Source: a virus
Lineage: Duplodnaviria > Heunggongvirae > Uroviricota > Caudoviricetes
Length of the DNA stretch: 41,265 bases
Reading direction: 5' to 3' (one strand)
Virus record (IMG/VR): IMGVR_UViG_2521172717_000006
The notes under the pieces are model-generated. The model searched no databases. It was not told the origin of the DNA and saw nothing but the letters and a program-made list of their open reading frames with translations. The translations under genes were made by a program, and so were the position numbers. Shown here piece by piece: positions 1 through 41,265 of this stretch; within the stretch, counting starts at the first letter, position 1, and the number at the start of each line of letters is the position of its first letter.

Positions 1-1158
1 ATGCTCACCGTTAAGCAGATTGAAGCAGCAAAGCCGAAAGAAAAACCATACCGCCTACTCGATGGTAATGGACTGTACCTTTATGTCCCTGTGTCAGGGA
101 AAAAGGTATGGCAGCTTCGCTACAAGATTGACGGTAAGGAGAAAATCCTGACCGTAGGAAAATACCCGCTTATGACTTTGCAAGAGGCAAGGGATAAAGC
201 ATGGACTGCGAGGAAAGACATCTCGGTCGGAATCGATCCGGTAAAAGCGAAAAAGGCTTCGTCTAACAACAATTCCTTTAGCGCCATTTACAAGGAATGG
301 TACGAGCACAAGAAGCAAGTCTGGTCTGTAGGGTATGCGACTGAACTTGCCAAAATGTTTGACGACGACATTTTACCTATCATTGGCGGCCTTGAAATTC
401 AGGATATTGAGCCGATGCAACTGCTGGAAGTAATCCGCAGGTTTGAAGATCGCGGTGCAATGGAGCGAGCCAACAAAGCCCGCAGAAGATGCGGCGAGGT
501 TTTCCGTTACGCTATTGTCACTGGTAGGGCTAAATATAACCCGGCACCTGACCTTGCTGACGCCATGAAGGGATACCGCAAGAAGAACTTCCCGTTTTTA
601 CCTGCCGACCAGATCCCGGCATTCAACAAAGCACTTGCAACATTTTCAGGAAGTATCGTATCGCTCATTGCGACCAAAGTTTTACGCTACACAGCCCTAA
701 GAACGAAAGAGCTTCGTTCCATGCAATGGAAGAACGTCGATTTTGAAAACAGGATTATCACCATCGACGCCAGTGTGATGAAGGGACGCAAAATTCATGT
801 TGTCCCGATGTCAGACCAGGTGGTTGAACTTCTCACTACGCTAAGCTCAATCACTAAACCAGTATCAGAGTTTGTTTTTGCCGGGCGAAACGATAAGAAA
901 AAGCCAATCTGCGAGAACGCGGTATTGCTTGTGATCAAACAAATCGGCTATGAGGGTCTGGAAAGCGGTCACGGATTCAGGCATGAATTCAGCACGATTA
1001 TGAACGAGCACGAATGGCCTGCTGACGCTATTGAAGTGCAACTTGCACATGCCAACGGCGGATCTGTGCGCGGGATTTACAACCATGCTCAGTATCTAGA
1101 TAAGCGCAGAGAAATGATGCAGTGGTGGGCTGACTGGATTGATGAAAAGGTGGAGTGA
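1..1158 (+). CDS. intS: Tyrosine site-specific integrase (P4/IntS-type), 385 aa
   Basis: N-terminal MLTVKQIEAAKPKEKPYRLLDGNGLYLYV typical of P4-family integrases; C-terminal R...HxxR...Y catalytic motifs (HGFRHEF, RGIYNHAQY) present; ORF begins at window position 1. Confidence 0.9.
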   Translation: MLTVKQIEAAKPKEKPYRLLDGNGLYLYVPVSGKKVWQLRYKIDGKEKILTVGKYPLMTLQEARDKAWTARKDISVGIDPVKAKKASSNNNSFSAIYKEWYEHKKQVWSVGYATELAKMFDDDILPIIGGLEIQDIEPMQLLEVIRRFEDRGAMERANKARRRCGEVFRYAIVTGRAKYNPAPDLADAMKGYRKKNFPFLPADQIPAFNKALATFSGSIVSLIATKVLRYTALRTKELRSMQWKNVDFENRIITIDASVMKGRKIHVVPMSDQVVELLTTLSSITKPVSEFVFAGRNDKKKPICENAVLLVIKQIGYEGLESGHGFRHEFSTIMNEHEWPADAIEVQLAHANGGSVRGIYNHAQYLDKRREMMQWWADWIDEKVE

Positions 1159-1321
1159 TCGATCTTAACCACTATCGGATAGTACAAAGCTTTGTGTGCC
1201 TCGTTCATGCCTCACATTACCTGGCAATCATCAAATTCACCAGAACGTTCATAAATCGTCTTTGTGATCTGCTTCACTGTTAGACGTAATACTTTTTGCA
1301 GTTATTTTATAATCATAGAAA

Positions 1322-1336
1322 TGCTCATCATGAGCA
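1322..1336. promoter_or_regulatory. Perfect palindrome TGCTCAT-c-ATGAGCA upstream of acyltransferase promoter; possible operator
   Basis: 7-bp inverted arms around a single centre base, read directly from sequence about 30 bp upstream of the -10 element. Confidence 0.3.
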
Positions 1337-1364
1337 GTGAGTTGGTGATCTGCGCTGGTAGCCC

Positions 1365-1373
1365 TGCTATAAT
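1365..1373 (+). promoter_or_regulatory. Extended -10 promoter element TGcTATAAT for acyltransferase gene
   Basis: Consensus TATAAT hexamer preceded by TG one base upstream; no good -35, consistent with extended -10 class. Confidence 0.4.
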
Positions 1374-1391
1374 CCTTTGAAATTTTATCTC

Positions 1392-2531
1392 ATGGTGTGC
1401 ATTATGATCTTTGAGGCGCAAAGTCTTTATTTATATTTTTTGTCTCTTTTAGCCGTTGTGTTATGTATTACACTATTGACACGATATAACTATTTTTCTC
1501 ACATCAACTTTGCAAGTAACAGGTATTTCTTTATAGACGGATTGCGTGGGATAGCTGCGTTCAGCGTTCTTATTAATCACGGCGCTCATACAATTATTAC
1601 CAATGGAGTTCAGCCCATATTTATAGACTTCACAAAATACTCCATCACAGGGAATATGGGTAGCTTCGGTGTACAGATTTTCTTTTGCATTACAGGATTT
1701 TTGTTCTTTGATAAATTAATAAAAGGAAATAATACATTTGACTGGAATAAATTTTATGTTGCTCGGATAAAAAGACTCGTTCCTCTATATATGCTTACTG
1801 CGCTTTTGGTGGCAATTTTAGCTATTATATTATCCGGCAGTTCAGCAAGGCTTAACTTTGTTGATTTTTCAAGCTTCCTAAATTTTTTTGGGTTTGGATT
1901 TTTGGGCACAGAAATCTTCATTGGCTCTTTTAACGCATCAGGATTAAATGCGGTGATATGGACTCTACCGTATGAATGGAGGTTTTATTTAATTTTCCCT
2001 CTATTATCGATTGCCATCGCAAGCAAGAGATATGGTATGTTTGCCATTTCCGCAGTAATGTTACTTGCGGCAAGAGACTTTATGACAGAATTTGTTTTGT
2101 GGCCATATTTTATAGTTGGCGCCTTAGGTGCATATATATTCAATAAATCTTATGTTAACATTGATGATAAATATTGGATATTCTCATTCATTTCTTTCAT
2201 AGCTATTTTTGTTATCTTCTGCTCTTCCGCAGACAGCTATGGACGAATCAGATTTGCATGCATTTCATTACTATTTATAATGGTACTTATAACTAAACCA
2301 AAAATATTTAAAATAAAATCATTAGTTTATTTAGGTGAGGCAAGTTATAGTCTTTATTTGCTGCATTTGCCTATCATGGCTATAGTAATGAGAACAATAA
2401 ATAATTTCTATAACCTATCGAGCATGTCTACTGTGAATTACACAATTTTGATAGCCTTTATTGCATCTCTGTGTAGCGTTATTTCCTGTATCTGTTTTAA
2501 GAATTTTGAGTGGAGATTCATTAAAAAGTAA
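1392..2531 (+). CDS. Acyltransferase family 3 integral membrane protein, O-antigen acetyltransferase-like (serotype-conversion candidate)
   Basis: FIDGLRGIAAFSVLINH motif near N-terminus typical of acyltransferase_3; multi-pass hydrophobic profile; visibly AT-rich codon usage; track ORF starts at TTG 1377, first ATG is 1392 (1404 also possible). Confidence 0.8.
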   Translation: MVCIMIFEAQSLYLYFLSLLAVVLCITLLTRYNYFSHINFASNRYFFIDGLRGIAAFSVLINHGAHTIITNGVQPIFIDFTKYSITGNMGSFGVQIFFCITGFLFFDKLIKGNNTFDWNKFYVARIKRLVPLYMLTALLVAILAIILSGSSARLNFVDFSSFLNFFGFGFLGTEIFIGSFNASGLNAVIWTLPYEWRFYLIFPLLSIAIASKRYGMFAISAVMLLAARDFMTEFVLWPYFIVGALGAYIFNKSYVNIDDKYWIFSFISFIAIFVIFCSSADSYGRIRFACISLLFIMVLITKPKIFKIKSLVYLGEASYSLYLLHLPIMAIVMRTINNFYNLSSMSTVNYTILIAFIASLCSVISCICFKNFEWRFIKK

Positions 2532-2535
2532 CATT

Positions 2536-2553
2536 GCGGGGCGATGGCCCCGC
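2536..2553. terminator. Bidirectional hairpin terminator between convergent acyltransferase and tailspike genes
   Basis: GCGGGGC-gatg-GCCCCGC stem-loop with T-rich flank on both strands. Confidence 0.55.
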
Positions 2554-2563
2554 TTGATTTCCG

Positions 2564-4762
2564 CTACGCTATATTAAGATTACCATATGTATTGTTTCCA
2601 AGACCATACCATGCCCAGTTTGTTCCTGATGCAGGAGTACCTGCATTGTGAATCATATCGCCTATATTTATCAGCACTTTCCCAGGGTATGTTGTAGTAG
2701 GAGCAGTGTCTATTCCAGCAGACACATCGGCAAAACGCCAACCACAGGAAACCATATCTGCGTTATCTCTAAATTTCTTAATTGAAAACGTGTATCTGTT
2801 TCCTCTATATATCATTCCAGCAAAACTAGGCCAGTCAATAAGTTGATTTACTGGTGAGTTTAAAGTGTTACTAAACTCATTATTTTCAATAACTGGTTCA
2901 TCGATACGCACACCCGAAGTTGATACTAGATATGTAGAATCAAAGTCGTTGTCAGAAATAATTGGAGCATAACCACCAATTTCACAACCTGTATTGCCAT
3001 GAACAAAATATGACTTATTCCCTCGGTATATAGATTTTCTCCATGTGGGCATTGTTACTTTTACGGCATCAGTTCTATCAAACTGGTTGTTTTCAATCAC
3101 AAGTCCATAACAATATGCAGACATCTGAGTTTCAGCATAATCATTTATGGCATAACCACCGCCTTTAAATGTATTTTTTGTTATTTTAATTCCATTGAAT
3201 GATGTTGAGTAGTCATTACTACCATTCCAGATAATTAGAATATGAGATGAAAATGTGCCATCCTCGTTCTGATCCCCAATGCTTATATTGCTATCAATAA
3301 CAACATTCTGCGCTGCAACACCGTTAGATTCACCTCCTATCTCAACGAATATTCCTTGTCCTGTTTTGATGTTATTCGATATAACTGCACCACCAGTCAC
3401 CCCCCAAGGAGTAATCCTAGACTGAATACTTATAGGGCTTATAAAGTGATTTCTTTCTGCAATTAAATATTTTGTTCTTGCTGAGCACGCAAAATCTTCA
3501 CCAAAAGTATGCCATTTTCTGCCTGTTCTGTACGTTTGGCAGTCAATCATCTTAGCAATTCCATTAAGATTTTTAGTGAAAAATGTATAATTTGTTACCA
3601 AATCAGTCCTTACATTGCTAAGAGTTATATCCTCATTTGGTATAGCACCGTCACCATCAGCATCTGCCATTACAAAGATTCTTGCAGCCAATACGTCAAT
3701 ATCATTAATAGATCCACTACTCCCCTCAAGTGCGAAACCAAACCAATTCTCTTGAGGGGTAAACGTGGTATCTGAAGGTCCAGTTGAAAAATTTGTGCAT
3801 GACTGGTTTAACTTTATACCATTAAATTTAAAGTTTTTGCAGTTGAATAAACCAAAGCAAACACGCTCAGCCTCACCATTTCCATCTGTATTTATATTTA
3901 CATCATTATCTGCGTAAACAAATAAATTATTTTTACCATTAATTACAATTGCTGTTTTACGTATAACACCTGCAGAGTCATGATATTGCTGGCTGATTTG
4001 GTAATTAAACTTTATCTCACCGGCGCTAAAACGTATTGCTCTAACACCACCAAATTTTGATATACAAGCGTTAACCGATGCCGTTGAATCATGCACTCCG
4101 TTAATATCATGTCCAGCCCAAACTGTATGTATGCCATCGAGCACACAATTCGAACGGATCCAGCAACCAGAGCCACCACCATCACTCTCACCAGTTCCCG
4201 CAAGGAAAGCAGCGAGCTCAGCATACGAACCATCCCACGGAACTGTGGGGCTAAATATGGTGATACCGTTGTGCTGAGATTTAGGCATGCTGGCATCCCA
4301 GTAAAACTGCCCGCCGCCAAAGTTGGTTCCTGGTACGTATCCAATTACATTTAATGTGTGATTCCCAGCAGGCTCGCTCATTAAGGTATGGATGTCAGGA
4401 ACATTCTCCATTCGCTGGCTAAACTGATCGGGATCATACTTCAGCACATTGGGAAAATAGAACTGCTGCGAACCATACGCATCATATACAGCCATGGAAT
4501 GGCCTTGCACAGTTACGAACTTGGCAATCTGTCCGTTATATACCGGATATCCGGCAGCGTTAATGATTATTGGTTGCGAAACAGGAACGTGAGAGCCGTC
4601 TTCGTTCTCTATATAAACCTGAATCTGGTTTTCTGAATTTACGGGGTCAGCGTCAATTTTACCGATATAAATTTTGCCATTGGCTACGGCTTTAAAAGAA
4701 CGAGCCATAGTGAAGAGTTGCGAAGGCATGCTTACCACAACATTTGCGGTGATATCTGACAT
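2564..4762 (-). CDS. Tailspike protein: P22/HK620-type N-terminal head-binding domain plus divergent beta-helix receptor-binding domain
   Basis: N-terminus [42 protein letters not shown]...[10 protein letters not shown] matches remembered P22 gp9/HK620 tailspike head-binding domain; remainder Gly/Asn/Ser/Thr-rich; start taken at internal ATG (M17 of track ORF) with GGAG RBS. Confidence 0.9.
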
Positions 4763-4883
4763 TTCATTGCTCCAGACGAATGATATGATGCAACCATGAT
4801 GTGATTGCATACCGAAATGGTACTATTGAGTATTTATCCAGTAGGTTACGATGCCATTCCACCCAACTGGTGAGGCATCAAGG

Positions 4884-5144
4884 ATGTACAGCAAATACGA
4901 CGAGGCGCAGTTTCACTTGAGACTTCCGCATGAACTCCACGCGAAAATTAAGCAGCGTGCGAAGATGAATAACAGGTCGCTGAACTCAGAGATAATTGCA
5001 GCGATTGAAGAATCATTGGCTAAACAAAGCTCTGCATCTGTTTACATTGACGATGCAGAGCGTATGGCAGAACAACAATCTGATATGGTTAAGAAAATTG
5101 TCTTTGATACGCTCAAAGAGCTATATAAAAAAGACAGCAGCTAA
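4884..5144 (+). CDS. mnt: Mnt-like ribbon-helix-helix repressor
   Basis: FHLRLPHELHAKIKQRAKMNNRSLNSEIIAAIEESL and C-terminal AERMAEQQSDMVKKIVFDTLKELYKK resemble P22 Mnt from memory; start chosen at M12 of track ORF. Confidence 0.75.
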   Translation: MYSKYDEAQFHLRLPHELHAKIKQRAKMNNRSLNSEIIAAIEESLAKQSSASVYIDDAERMAEQQSDMVKKIVFDTLKELYKKDSS

Positions 5145-39561: not shown

Positions 39562-39576
39562 CTGCAGGGGACACCA
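39562..39576 (+). other. Probable attR core: tRNA 3' acceptor end CTGCAGGGGACACCA
   Basis: 15-nt sequence ending in the characteristic ...GGGGACACCA tRNA 3' end, about 75 bp downstream of excisionase gene. Confidence 0.55.
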
Positions 39577-39964
39577 GATACCCTTCAAACGAAATCTACC
39601 TTCACCCCGTAAAAGATGGGTTTGGCAGCACACTTGCCTTATATCTACTCATTTTTACTGCAACAGGTTGAAATCTCAGCACTGTCAGAAAGCGCTGATG
39701 ACTAAACAGCCCTGGGCCGGGCGATGTAACCATCACACAGAATCCTGATAGCGAAATATGGCGTGACTCGATACTTCACTCCGCAATGCATTCCTTGATG
39801 AATTCGCAGGACCGTGATACACGGGACAGGTCACTGAATGACGACAATGTCCTGGAAATCAGCGAACCGCGCATCTGAAGTACATTTGAGCGACTGTACC
39901 AGAACATGAATGAGGCGTTTGGATTAGGCGATTATTAGCAGGGCTAAGCATTTTACTATTATTA

Positions 39965-40008
39965 TTTTCCGGTTGAGGGATATAGAGCTATCGACAACAA
40001 CCGGAAAA
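39965..40008. repeat. Perfect 11-bp inverted repeat TTTTCCGGTTG ... CAACCGGAAAA with 22-nt spacer, just downstream of permease gene
   Basis: Read directly; no T-run, so not a canonical intrinsic terminator. Confidence 0.4.
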
Positions 40009-40017
40009 AGTTTACGT

Positions 40018-41265
40018 CTATATTGCTGAAGGTACAGGCGTTTCCATAACTATTTGCTCGCGTTTTTTACTCAAGAAGAAAATGCCAAATAGCAACATCA
40101 GGCAGACAATACCCGAAATTGCGAAGAAAACTGTCTGGTAGCCTGCGTGGTCAAAGAGTATCCCAGTCGGCGTTGAAAGCAGCACAATCCCAAGCGAACT
40201 GGCAATTTGAAAACCAATCAGAAAGATCGTCGACGACAGGCGCTTATCAAAGTTTGCCACGCTGTATTTGAAGACGGATATGACACAAAGTGGAACCTCA
40301 ATGGCATGTAACAACTTCACTAATGAAATAATCCAGGGGTTAACGAACAGCGCGCAGGAAAGGATACGCAACGCCATAATCACAACTCCGATAAGTAATG
40401 CATTTTTTGGCCCTACCCGATTCACAAAGAAAGGAATAATCGCCATGCACAGCGCTTCGAGTACCACCTGGAATGAGTTGAGATAACCATACAGGCGCGT
40501 TCCTACATCGTGTGATTCGAATAAACCTGAATAAAAGACAGGAAAAAGTTGTTGATCAAAAATGTTATAGAAAGACCACGTCCCCACAATAAATATGACG
40601 AAAACCCAGAAGTTTCGATCCTTGAAAACTGCGATAAAATCCTCTTTTTTTACCCCTCCCGCATCTGCCGCTACGCACTGGTGATCCTTATCTTTAAAAC
40701 GCATGTTGATCATCATAAATACAGCGCCAAATAGCGAGACCAACCAGAAGTTGATATGGGGACTGATACTAAAAAATATGCCGGCAAAGAACGCGCCAAT
40801 AGCATAGCCAAAAGATCCCCAGGCGCGCGCTGTTCCATATTCGAAATGAAAATTTCGCGCCATTTTTTCGGTGAAGCTATCAAGCAAACCGCATCCCGCC
40901 AGATACCCCAAGCCAAAAAATAGCGCCCCCAGAATTAGACCTACAGAAAAATTGCTTTGCAGTAACGGTTCATAAACGTAAATCATAAACGGTCCGGTCA
41001 AGACCAGGATGAAACTCATACACCAGATGAGCGGTTTCTTCAGACCGAGTTTATCCTGAACGATGCCGTAGAACATCATAAATAGAATGCTGGTAAACTG
41101 GTTGACCGAATAAAGTGTACCTAATTCCGTCCCTGTCAACCCTAGATGTCCTTTCAGCCAAATAGCGTATAACGACCACCACAGCGACCAGGAAATAAAA
41201 AAGAGAAATGAGTAACTGGATGCAAAACGATAGTACGCATTTCTGAATGGAATATTCAGTGCCAT
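40018..41265 (-). CDS. cscB: LacY-family oligosaccharide:H+ symporter, sucrose permease CscB-like (chromosomal)
   Basis: 415 aa; N-terminus MALNIPFRNAYYRFASSYSFLFFISWSLWWSLYAIWLKGHLGL recognised as CscB / LacY-like 12-TM permease; ORF start coincides with window end. Confidence 0.85.
   Translation of the reverse strand: MALNIPFRNAYYRFASSYSFLFFISWSLWWSLYAIWLKGHLGLTGTELGTLYSVNQFTSILFMMFYGIVQDKLGLKKPLIWCMSFILVLTGPFMIYVYEPLLQSNFSVGLILGALFFGLGYLAGCGLLDSFTEKMARNFHFEYGTARAWGSFGYAIGAFFAGIFFSISPHINFWLVSLFGAVFMMINMRFKDKDHQCVAADAGGVKKEDFIAVFKDRNFWVFVIFIVGTWSFYNIFDQQLFPVFYSGLFESHDVGTRLYGYLNSFQVVLEALCMAIIPFFVNRVGPKNALLIGVVIMALRILSCALFVNPWIISLVKLLHAIEVPLCVISVFKYSVANFDKRLSSTIFLIGFQIASSLGIVLLSTPTGILFDHAGYQTVFFAISGIVCLMLLFGIFFLSKKREQIVMETPVPSAI

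Follow-up and report, generated by a model that had tools for sequence, protein, structure and literature searches.

A gene in the argW prophage of Escherichia coli W is predicted to encode a membrane acyltransferase that modifies the surface of its host. It lies in the window, the whole stretch of 41,265 nucleotides that was analyzed here (IMG/VR virus record IMGVR_UViG_2521172717_000006), between the gene for an integrase (int) and the gene for the tailspike. The best explanation of all observations, to which we assign a probability of roughly 0.68, is that this acyltransferase_3 (AT3) gene is a moron whose product acetylates or otherwise acylates the O6 O-antigen of the host and masks the receptor of the phage's own tailspike. 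The product is most likely a phage O-antigen O-acetyltransferase, previously uncharacterized, and the gene has what looks like the anatomy of a moron: low GC content, a conserved predicted promoter and terminator, and patchy presence among related phages.

The window corresponds to the P22-like prophage at argW in E. coli W. Positions 1100–2600 recur without a break and at 100% identity in the chromosome of E. coli W (NC_017635.1), and three further records, two labeled DH5alpha plus B-766, also have them unchanged; all three appear to be the same strain as E. coli W. The RefSeq gene order in E. coli W is tRNA-Arg (argW), intS, "acyltransferase family protein", and "phage head-binding domain-containing protein" (the tailspike), followed beyond the tailspike by an Arc-family protein and P22-type ejection and needle genes. 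Structural genes and the backbone are ∼96% identical to those of the P22-like phage IME10. The element has been listed as prophage Argw*W and the strain as O6 (Archer et al.; PMC3032704), and RefSeq labels the host wzx and wzy genes "O6 family".

The initial annotation had described an acyltransferase_3 membrane protein of 379 amino acids encoded next to the integrase in markedly AT-rich DNA. Its family, location, and composition were borne out. The match to Pfam Acyl_transf_3 (E 8.8e-33, 114.2 bits against a cut-off of 31) spans profile positions 3–320 of 326, so that 318 of 326 are covered, and the architecture is single-domain, AT3-only. The int gene occupies positions 1–1158, on the same strand, and its stop codon is 245 bp before ATG 1404 of the AT3 gene. 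The GC content of the gene is 33.2% versus 48.4% in the remainder of the prophage. The length needs revision. In the open reading frame at 1377–2531 (plus strand), an in-frame ATG at 1392 does yield 379 amino acids, but ATG 1404, which yields 375, is more probably the start because it is the RefSeq start, six of the seven closest homologs (P0002–P0007) have 375 amino acids, and an ATG is present there in all six close loci. Position 1392 is a GTG in L009, one of the close relatives, and the four extra residues of the longer form are not conserved. Between codons 1392 and 1404, conservation is seen in a GG that is compatible with a Shine-Dalgarno element for the downstream start.

Residues known to matter in AT3 enzymes are retained. 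In an alignment of 31 sequences that are 30–89% identical to the window protein, R48 and H59 (R-X10-H), FFCIT97G (F93/F94/T97/G98), and R121-I-K-R124 (RXXR) are invariant, with Thr (T97) instead of Ser in the FFxISG-type motif. Also invariant are WxLxxE191 (W186/L188/E191), SYxxYLxH321 (S314/Y315/Y318/L319/H321), and E369. The R/K-X10-H motif of the first core helix and the FFxISG and RXXR motifs were defined for AT3 acetyltransferases (PMC7448272), and R-X10-H, FFxI(S/T)G, and RXXR are essential in OafA, Oac, and OacB (PMC7448272, PMC8952252). The best phage-family match is PHROG 3333, "O-acetyltransferase" (E 8e-44). An AlphaFold2 model (predicted local distance difference test score of 88.3; predicted template modeling score of 0.88) is all-helical, in keeping with the polytopic AT3 fold of about 10 helices, and has an extra N-terminal helix, residues 5–27, before the core. 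A sequence search detected no solved AT3 homolog. Foldseek against the PDB returned weak matches to human HGSNAT only (probability 0.5–0.7, E > 0.1), which agree with the published TmAT superfamily link (PMC12423673) and are not evidence by themselves.

Protein searches recovered a tight group of 375-amino-acid relatives at 70–89% identity, followed by proteins with ≤43% identity in many Enterobacterales and Pseudomonas. The loci retrieved include five close relatives (L002, L006, L009, L020, and L021) and more distant ones. Among relatives, the ratio of nonsynonymous to synonymous substitution rates (dN/dS) is ∼0.1 (0.08–0.11), and the gene is therefore kept under purifying selection. The gene is missing from IME10, HK620, and other relatives, which share only the int end. 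We also observed a mosaic patch inside the gene, at 1680–2220, where identity to L002 is 77–80% and dS is ∼1.4 versus 0.16 outside the patch. Divergence from L002 within the patch is about equal to that from L006, a 75% relative. This pattern points to a recombination event within the gene that involved a third allele.

The gene is predicted to have its own promoter, as had been proposed on the basis of the TGcTATAAT element. The TGCTATAAT at 1365–1373 is the only TGNTATAAT in the window, and the motif count alone is at chance level (one found versus 1.25 expected in dinucleotide shuffles). The position of the motif is more telling. In all six close loci, whose proteins are 70–100% identical, the extended −10 is at −39 to −41 from the start codon, worded as TGCTATAAT in five and as TGATACAAT in one, and TGCTAACAT is found at −39 in a 41% homolog. 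A GTGAyC or ATGACC hexamer is exactly 17 bp upstream of the −10 in E. coli W, L002, L006, L009, L020, and L021. The 17-bp spacer between −35 and −10 and the sequence further upstream have almost completely diverged among these loci. Because position is conserved in relatives while the spacer has diverged, the site stands above chance, and the pattern is supported as the phylogenetic footprint of a predicted promoter, from which transcription is predicted to start at ∼1380. A generic promoter scan passed over the site because its −35 matches the consensus at only three of six positions; the scan found fewer promoter-like sites than in shuffles and is uninformative here.

At the other end of the gene, a GC-rich hairpin lies between the convergent stops of the AT3 and tailspike genes. 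All six close loci have a GC-rich hairpin directly past the stop of the AT3 gene, and those at this place in L006, L009, L020, L021, and L010 differ in sequence. The hairpin in the window is a probable bidirectional intrinsic terminator for both genes.

A direct repeat, GTGATCTGC, occurs in the promoter region in two copies 81 bp apart (1264–1272 and 1345–1353), each with a GATC Dam site. The first copy has no conserved counterpart even in L002, and the second coincides with the hexamer at −35. L002 and L009 retain the GATC of this hexamer; L006, L020, and L021 have lost it. Phase variation of the Dam/OxyR type, as in gtr and oafB, is not supported, given that neither the GTGATCTGC copies nor the GATC is conserved across relatives.

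The palindrome upstream of the promoter had been proposed as a possible operator. We weighed a broader version of this proposal, in which the acyltransferase promoter is controlled by the palindrome acting as an operator, as an activator site, or as a 5′ hairpin in the RNA. The palindrome itself is as described: it is perfect, and it ends 28 bp before the TG of the extended −10, at approximately −58 to −44 from the predicted transcription start. It is also identical in L002, and a TATAAT at 1308–1313 would place the dyad at the 5′ end of a possible transcript. This second perfect TATAAT, upstream of the palindrome, has no usable −35, and L002 is the only relative in which it is conserved; its transcript would start with the palindrome as a 5′ hairpin. 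The regulatory role is not sustained by the remaining observations. Identity in L002, the only relative to share the palindrome, is uninformative because the whole region there is ∼100% identical. The palindrome is absent from L006, L009, L020, and L021, relatives at 70–75% that all keep the promoter. It is located upstream of the −35, does not overlap core promoter elements, and has no second copy with two or fewer mismatches in the 41-kb window, immunity regions included. Perfect palindromes with 7-bp arms and spacers of 0–3 nucleotides number 8 in the window versus 11.8 ± 3.9 in shuffles, and the probability of at least one such palindrome in the 245-bp spacer between int and the AT3 gene is ∼0.07. 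The hairpin that it could form is weak (−6.5 kcal/mol). Control of the promoter through the palindrome is thus very improbable, and the palindrome, although real, is probably fortuitous, with no supported operator role. As a site for a phage repressor it was rejected, there being no further copy in the window or its immunity regions. By eye, it also does not resemble the Arc and Mnt operators of P22.

The spacer that contains the palindrome was also considered as attP, by analogy to P22, and ruled out because argW, int, the AT3 gene, and the tailspike gene are contiguous in E. coli W, attL is upstream of int, and attR is at 39562–39576. The attL site (argW) is 161 bp to the left of position 1 and outside the window. 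Comparison with LY180, a derivative of E. coli W, places the right end of the prophage at 39576; the attR core, CTGCAGGGGACACCA, corresponds to the 3′ end of argW, and positions 39577–41265 are host DNA on the cscB side. An open reading frame resembling AlpA/Xis starts at ∼39289 and stops just short of attR. No tRNA or known RNA was found in the region with ARAGORN and an Rfam scan at gathering thresholds. Directly after the int stop are two short palindromes, ACTATC-g-GATAGT (1171–1183) and ACAAAGCTTTGT (1184–1195), in a stretch of ∼45 bp that is still conserved with HK620, CUS-3, and many prophages with IntS-type integrases. The annotation of HK620 has the terminator of the excision transcript slightly downstream of the equivalent position. 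These palindromes may act in the processing or retroregulation of int.

In the window, the AT3 gene is convergent with the tailspike gene. In seven of eight AT3 relatives examined, a gene for a tailspike or tail fiber is convergent with the AT3 gene at the prophage end or within ∼2 kb of it; L002, L006, L009, L010, L012, L013/14, L020, and L021 are the relatives named for this linkage, and the exception is L011, in which the AT3 gene is beside a transposase. The closest relatives, at 89% identity (L002–L005), are in another type of prophage, in which lysis genes flank the acyltransferase gene. The nucleotide identity profile between the window and L002 is 92–100% from ∼1250 to ∼4290, with the exception of the mosaic patch, and falls to ∼50% in the flanks. 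The L002 tailspike is 96% identical to that of the window over residues 134–748, and its N-terminus is 77–78% identical to those of epsilon15, phiV10, and Tyrion. Tailspike N-termini of the epsilon15/phiV10 type are found in the prophages of both L002 and L006. The window tailspike has a head-binding N-terminal domain of the P22 type, and its only PDB matches are to the N-terminal domains of the Sf6 and P22 tailspikes. As the shared block is embedded in flanks of ∼50% identity, the promoter, AT3 gene, terminator, and receptor-binding domain therefore make up one cassette of ∼3 kb, which is predicted to have been exchanged between P22-like and epsilon15-like podophages.

Identities of the AT3 protein and the tailspike domain fall together in some relatives, from 89% and 96% in L002 to 75.5% and 90% in L006 and 70% and 63% in L009. 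Strict codivergence of the two was considered and set aside, since it holds only loosely, with L020 as an exception. We suggest, tentatively and with somewhat less than even confidence, that the AT3 gene and the receptor-binding domain are a coinherited "recognize-and-mask" cassette that moves as a unit between unrelated podophage genera, and that E. coli W carries an undescribed O-acylated form of O6.

The prophage of E. coli E423 (L015; NZ_CM173464.1, 2927–9270) offers a second line of evidence. Its tailspike domain is 98.3% identical in nucleotides to that of the window, and the convergent slot is occupied by gtrA-gtrB-gtrC. Next to this tailspike domain, the slot can therefore alternatively hold a dedicated O-antigen modifier. 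The analysis suggests that E423 is O6. Distant relatives of the tailspike domain (35–42% amino acid identity) occur in lytic phages with recorded hosts that include CFT073 and ATCC 25922, and also in phage 536P11. CFT073 and ATCC 25922 are both O6 strains. The initial annotation held that the substrate could not be told from sequence, and it remains the case that an acceptor cannot be transferred by homology. Context now points to one: because of the linkage to the tailspike domain, the gtrABC alternative in E423, and the O6 wzx and wzy genes of the host, we infer that the O6 O-antigen is both the receptor of the tailspike and the acceptor of the acyltransferase.

Further observations concern the tailspike gene, its neighbors, and the gtrABC prophages. 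The tailspike open reading frame as called mechanically starts at ATG 4810 (748 amino acids), with Head_binding from residue 17, and the RefSeq start is at 4762 (732 amino acids, MSDITANV...); the RefSeq form is probably correct. Divergent from the tailspike gene, positions 4851–5144 encode a single protein with Arc-like and Mnt C-terminal domains, whose family has the PHROGs label "partition protein ATPase", an apparent misannotation. No antirepressor gene is evident in the list of open reading frames for this region, which suggests that the immI region is reduced. In E423, an ISApl1 element has split the tailspike gene close to the 5′ end, and the neighboring ejection-protein genes are pseudogenes; the prophage is decaying. 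A gtrC with 91% identity to the E423 gene is present in five other E. coli genomes (VE-F10, LR-64-2, JKHS016, AST198, and OZ121069). In each of them a chimeric query that included an O6 wzy segment found a second match, the IntS ends are 94% identical, and the tailspike is of the head-binding type. P22-like gtrABC prophages may be common in O6 strains.

The acyltransferase could instead act on another envelope glycan, such as enterobacterial common antigen, osmoregulated periplasmic glucans, colanic acid, lipopolysaccharide core, or peptidoglycan, or use a donor other than acetyl, e.g., succinyl. Adjacency to the tailspike gene would then reflect no more than the usual slot for cargo. AT3-only proteins have many acceptors and donors, as exemplified by WecH, MdoC/OpgC, ExoH, and IcaC (PMC9558356). 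The window protein has low identity to proven O-antigen acetylases, and the AT3 gene of L011 is chromosomal, with no tail gene called in the 11-kb locus. Other observations run counter to a different glycan. The AT3 gene travels with a tailspike receptor-binding domain across two phage genera, gtrABC, an O-antigen modifier, replaces it beside the same tailspike domain, and its best phage-family match is an O-acetyltransferase. No NCBIfam model of any kind matched at E ≤ 0.01, with the limit that the presence of WecH and OpgC models in the library was not confirmed. We consider a different acceptor or donor unlikely, with a small yet real share of the probability.

If the O6 O-antigen is the acceptor, modification is predicted to proceed as follows. 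In the lysogen, sigma-70 RNA polymerase would start at ∼1380 from the extended −10 and its weak GTGATC −35, and transcription would end at the hairpin at 2536–2553. The AT3 enzyme would pass an acyl group through its pore in the inner membrane; the group is most likely acetyl, taken from acetyl-CoA in the cytoplasm. On the periplasmic face, the acyl group would esterify a sugar hydroxyl of the host O6 repeat. With the epitope altered, the phage's own tailspike, and others with the same receptor-binding domain, would be hindered from binding or cleaving the O-antigen. The predicted consequences are that the receptor is masked, superinfection is excluded, and the serotype is modified, as for Sf6 Oac and BTP1 GtrC/OafB.

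Several points weigh against O6 modification by this gene. The −35 is weak, AT-rich DNA is often silenced by H-NS, and the terminator scan predicted no intrinsic terminator between int and the AT3 gene, so that read-through from int is possible. The O-acylation activity of the protein is predicted from family and context, and neither acceptor nor position is transferable by homology because identity is 22% to Sf6 Oac and 27% to Sf101 OacB. The O6 status of E423 comes from an indirect, two-place BLAST match to a chimeric query with an O6 wzy segment. Divergence of the AT3 protein and the tailspike domain is loosely coupled, with identities of 70% and 81% in L021 and of 71% and 38% in L020. We found no report of an O-acetylated O6 antigen in the literature and nothing specific on the acyltransferase of this prophage. 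Finally, AT3 enzymes can also transfer succinyl or other acyl groups (PMC9558356).

The low GC content and weak −35 also fit another possibility: in E. coli W the gene could be cargo that is silent or decaying and gives no phenotype, with H-NS silencing it, for example, or read-through at induction as its only source of expression. The lack of a predicted terminator after int is consistent with this explanation. So is the rarity of the cassette, which was found in just 4 of 5,426 complete E. coli genomes, all W or apparently W-derived. Derivatives of E. coli W also grow without the prophage. Against this explanation, the frame of the gene is intact with every invariant residue of the family, selection on it is strongly purifying, and its promoter and terminator are conserved across diverged relatives. 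We therefore regard silent cargo as improbable and retain modification of the O6 O-antigen as the preferred explanation.

The derivatives LY180 and KO11FL are informative in their own right. Both keep the O6 wzy, have no match to the tailspike segment, and are not among the genomes that hold the cassette. Therefore, naturally "cured" relatives of E. coli W exist. In LY180, argW is followed directly by csc genes and the attachment site is empty. It is possible that the argW prophage can excise.

E. coli W is in wide use as a "safe" strain in industry and the laboratory, and serogroup O6 is common among commensal and uropathogenic E. coli. If the prediction is true, O-acylation of O6 by a prophage would change the epitope and phage susceptibility of such strains, which is relevant to glycoconjugate vaccines based on O-antigen and to the treatment of O6 infections with phages. 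The structure of the cassette suggests that receptor recognition and receptor masking are inherited together across phage genera. It also offers a rule for predicting the target of uncharacterized prophage AT3 genes, which is to read the adjacent tailspike. In kind, an AT3 conversion gene is what specialists expect at this position of a P22-like prophage.

Table 1. Coordinates of features in the window, with the strand and the basis on which each was called
Feature	Positions	Strand	Basis
Tyrosine integrase (IntS type)	1–1158	+	Pfam Phage_integrase, Phage_int_M, Arm-DNA-bind_3; RefSeq context
Mobile cassette of low GC content (36.6%), from the promoter region through the AT3 gene and terminator to the receptor-binding domain of the tailspike	1250–4290	.	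Identity profile versus L002
Perfect palindrome TGCTCAT-c-ATGAGCA	1322–1336	.	7+1+7 dyad; probably fortuitous
−35-like hexamer GTGATC, 3/6 matches to TTGACA	1345–1350	+	17 bp upstream of −10; contains GATC Dam site
Extended −10 element TGcTATAAT (TGCTATAAT)	1365–1373	+	Only match in the window; conserved position
AT3-only membrane acyltransferase, 375 amino acids	1404–2531	+	Pfam PF01757, PHROG 3333, motifs, AlphaFold2 model, dN/dS
GC-rich hairpin GCGGGGC-GATG-GCCCCGC, 7-bp stem	2536–2553	.	Terminator scan, both strands; free energy of −17.1 kcal/mol
Tailspike gene, convergent with the AT3 gene	2564–4810	-	Pfam Head_binding E 7e-66; receptor-binding domain ∼2564–4290, low GC

The gene has its closest counterparts in phages of Shigella. 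The initial annotation had likened the arrangement to that of Sf6, and the slot is indeed the same as that of oac in Sf6 and of oacB in Sf101. Sf6 is likewise a P22-like phage with integration at argW, and its oac (oacA) gene, which follows int immediately on the same strand, encodes an O-antigen O-acetyltransferase that is also AT3-only. Sf6 Oac masks the receptor of the endorhamnosidase tailspike of its own phage (AT3 review, PMC9558356). The two proteins differ in that identity is 22% (pairwise E 2e-9) and that Sf6 Oac has 333 amino acids and lacks the extra N-terminal helix formed by residues 5–27 of the window protein. The host O-antigen is O6 rather than that of Shigella flexneri, and upstream regions are unrelated beyond the int end. 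OacB of phage Sf101 is the only phage match by tblastn, with 27% identity over 98% of the length. It is similar in length (390 amino acids), its predicted 11 helices resemble the model of the window protein, and its critical residues R47, H58, R116, and R119 correspond to R48, H59, R121, and R124 (PMC8952252). In Sf101, oacB is also convergent with the tailspike gene, but the O-antigen and phage backbone are different, int is on the opposite strand, and a small open reading frame intervenes. The window protein belongs to a separate clade and is not an ortholog of the characterized OacA, OacB, OacC, or OacD.

Similarities extend to other conversion systems. In Salmonella prophage BTP1, the acetyltransferase GtrC/OafB likewise adjoins the tailspike, and the modification is described as protecting the O-antigen of the lysogen from the phage's own tailspike (PMC4413052; PMC9558356). 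Unlike the AT3-only protein of the window, for which no conserved pair of Dam sites was found, BTP1 OafB is an AT3-SGNH fusion and phase-variable. The gtrABC cassettes of P22, epsilon34, and E. coli prophages occupy the same slot but glucosylate via undecaprenyl phosphate glucose (Und-P-Glc) and consist of three genes versus one here. These cassettes are highly mobile and exchanged between phage types, and C-terminal domains of tailspikes are swapped at the head-binding junction (PMC2629481). The epsilon15-like podophages phiV10 and Tyrion also carry an AT3 conversion gene (PMC9558356). In contrast to the relatives described here, their Oac homologs have no match to the window protein by tblastn at E ≤ 1e-5 and thus belong to a different AT3 clade. 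The arrangement of int, AT3 gene, and tailspike gene is textbook for Sf6 and Sf101, and the joint transfer of a masking gene and a recognition domain illustrates what is known from these systems rather than a new principle.

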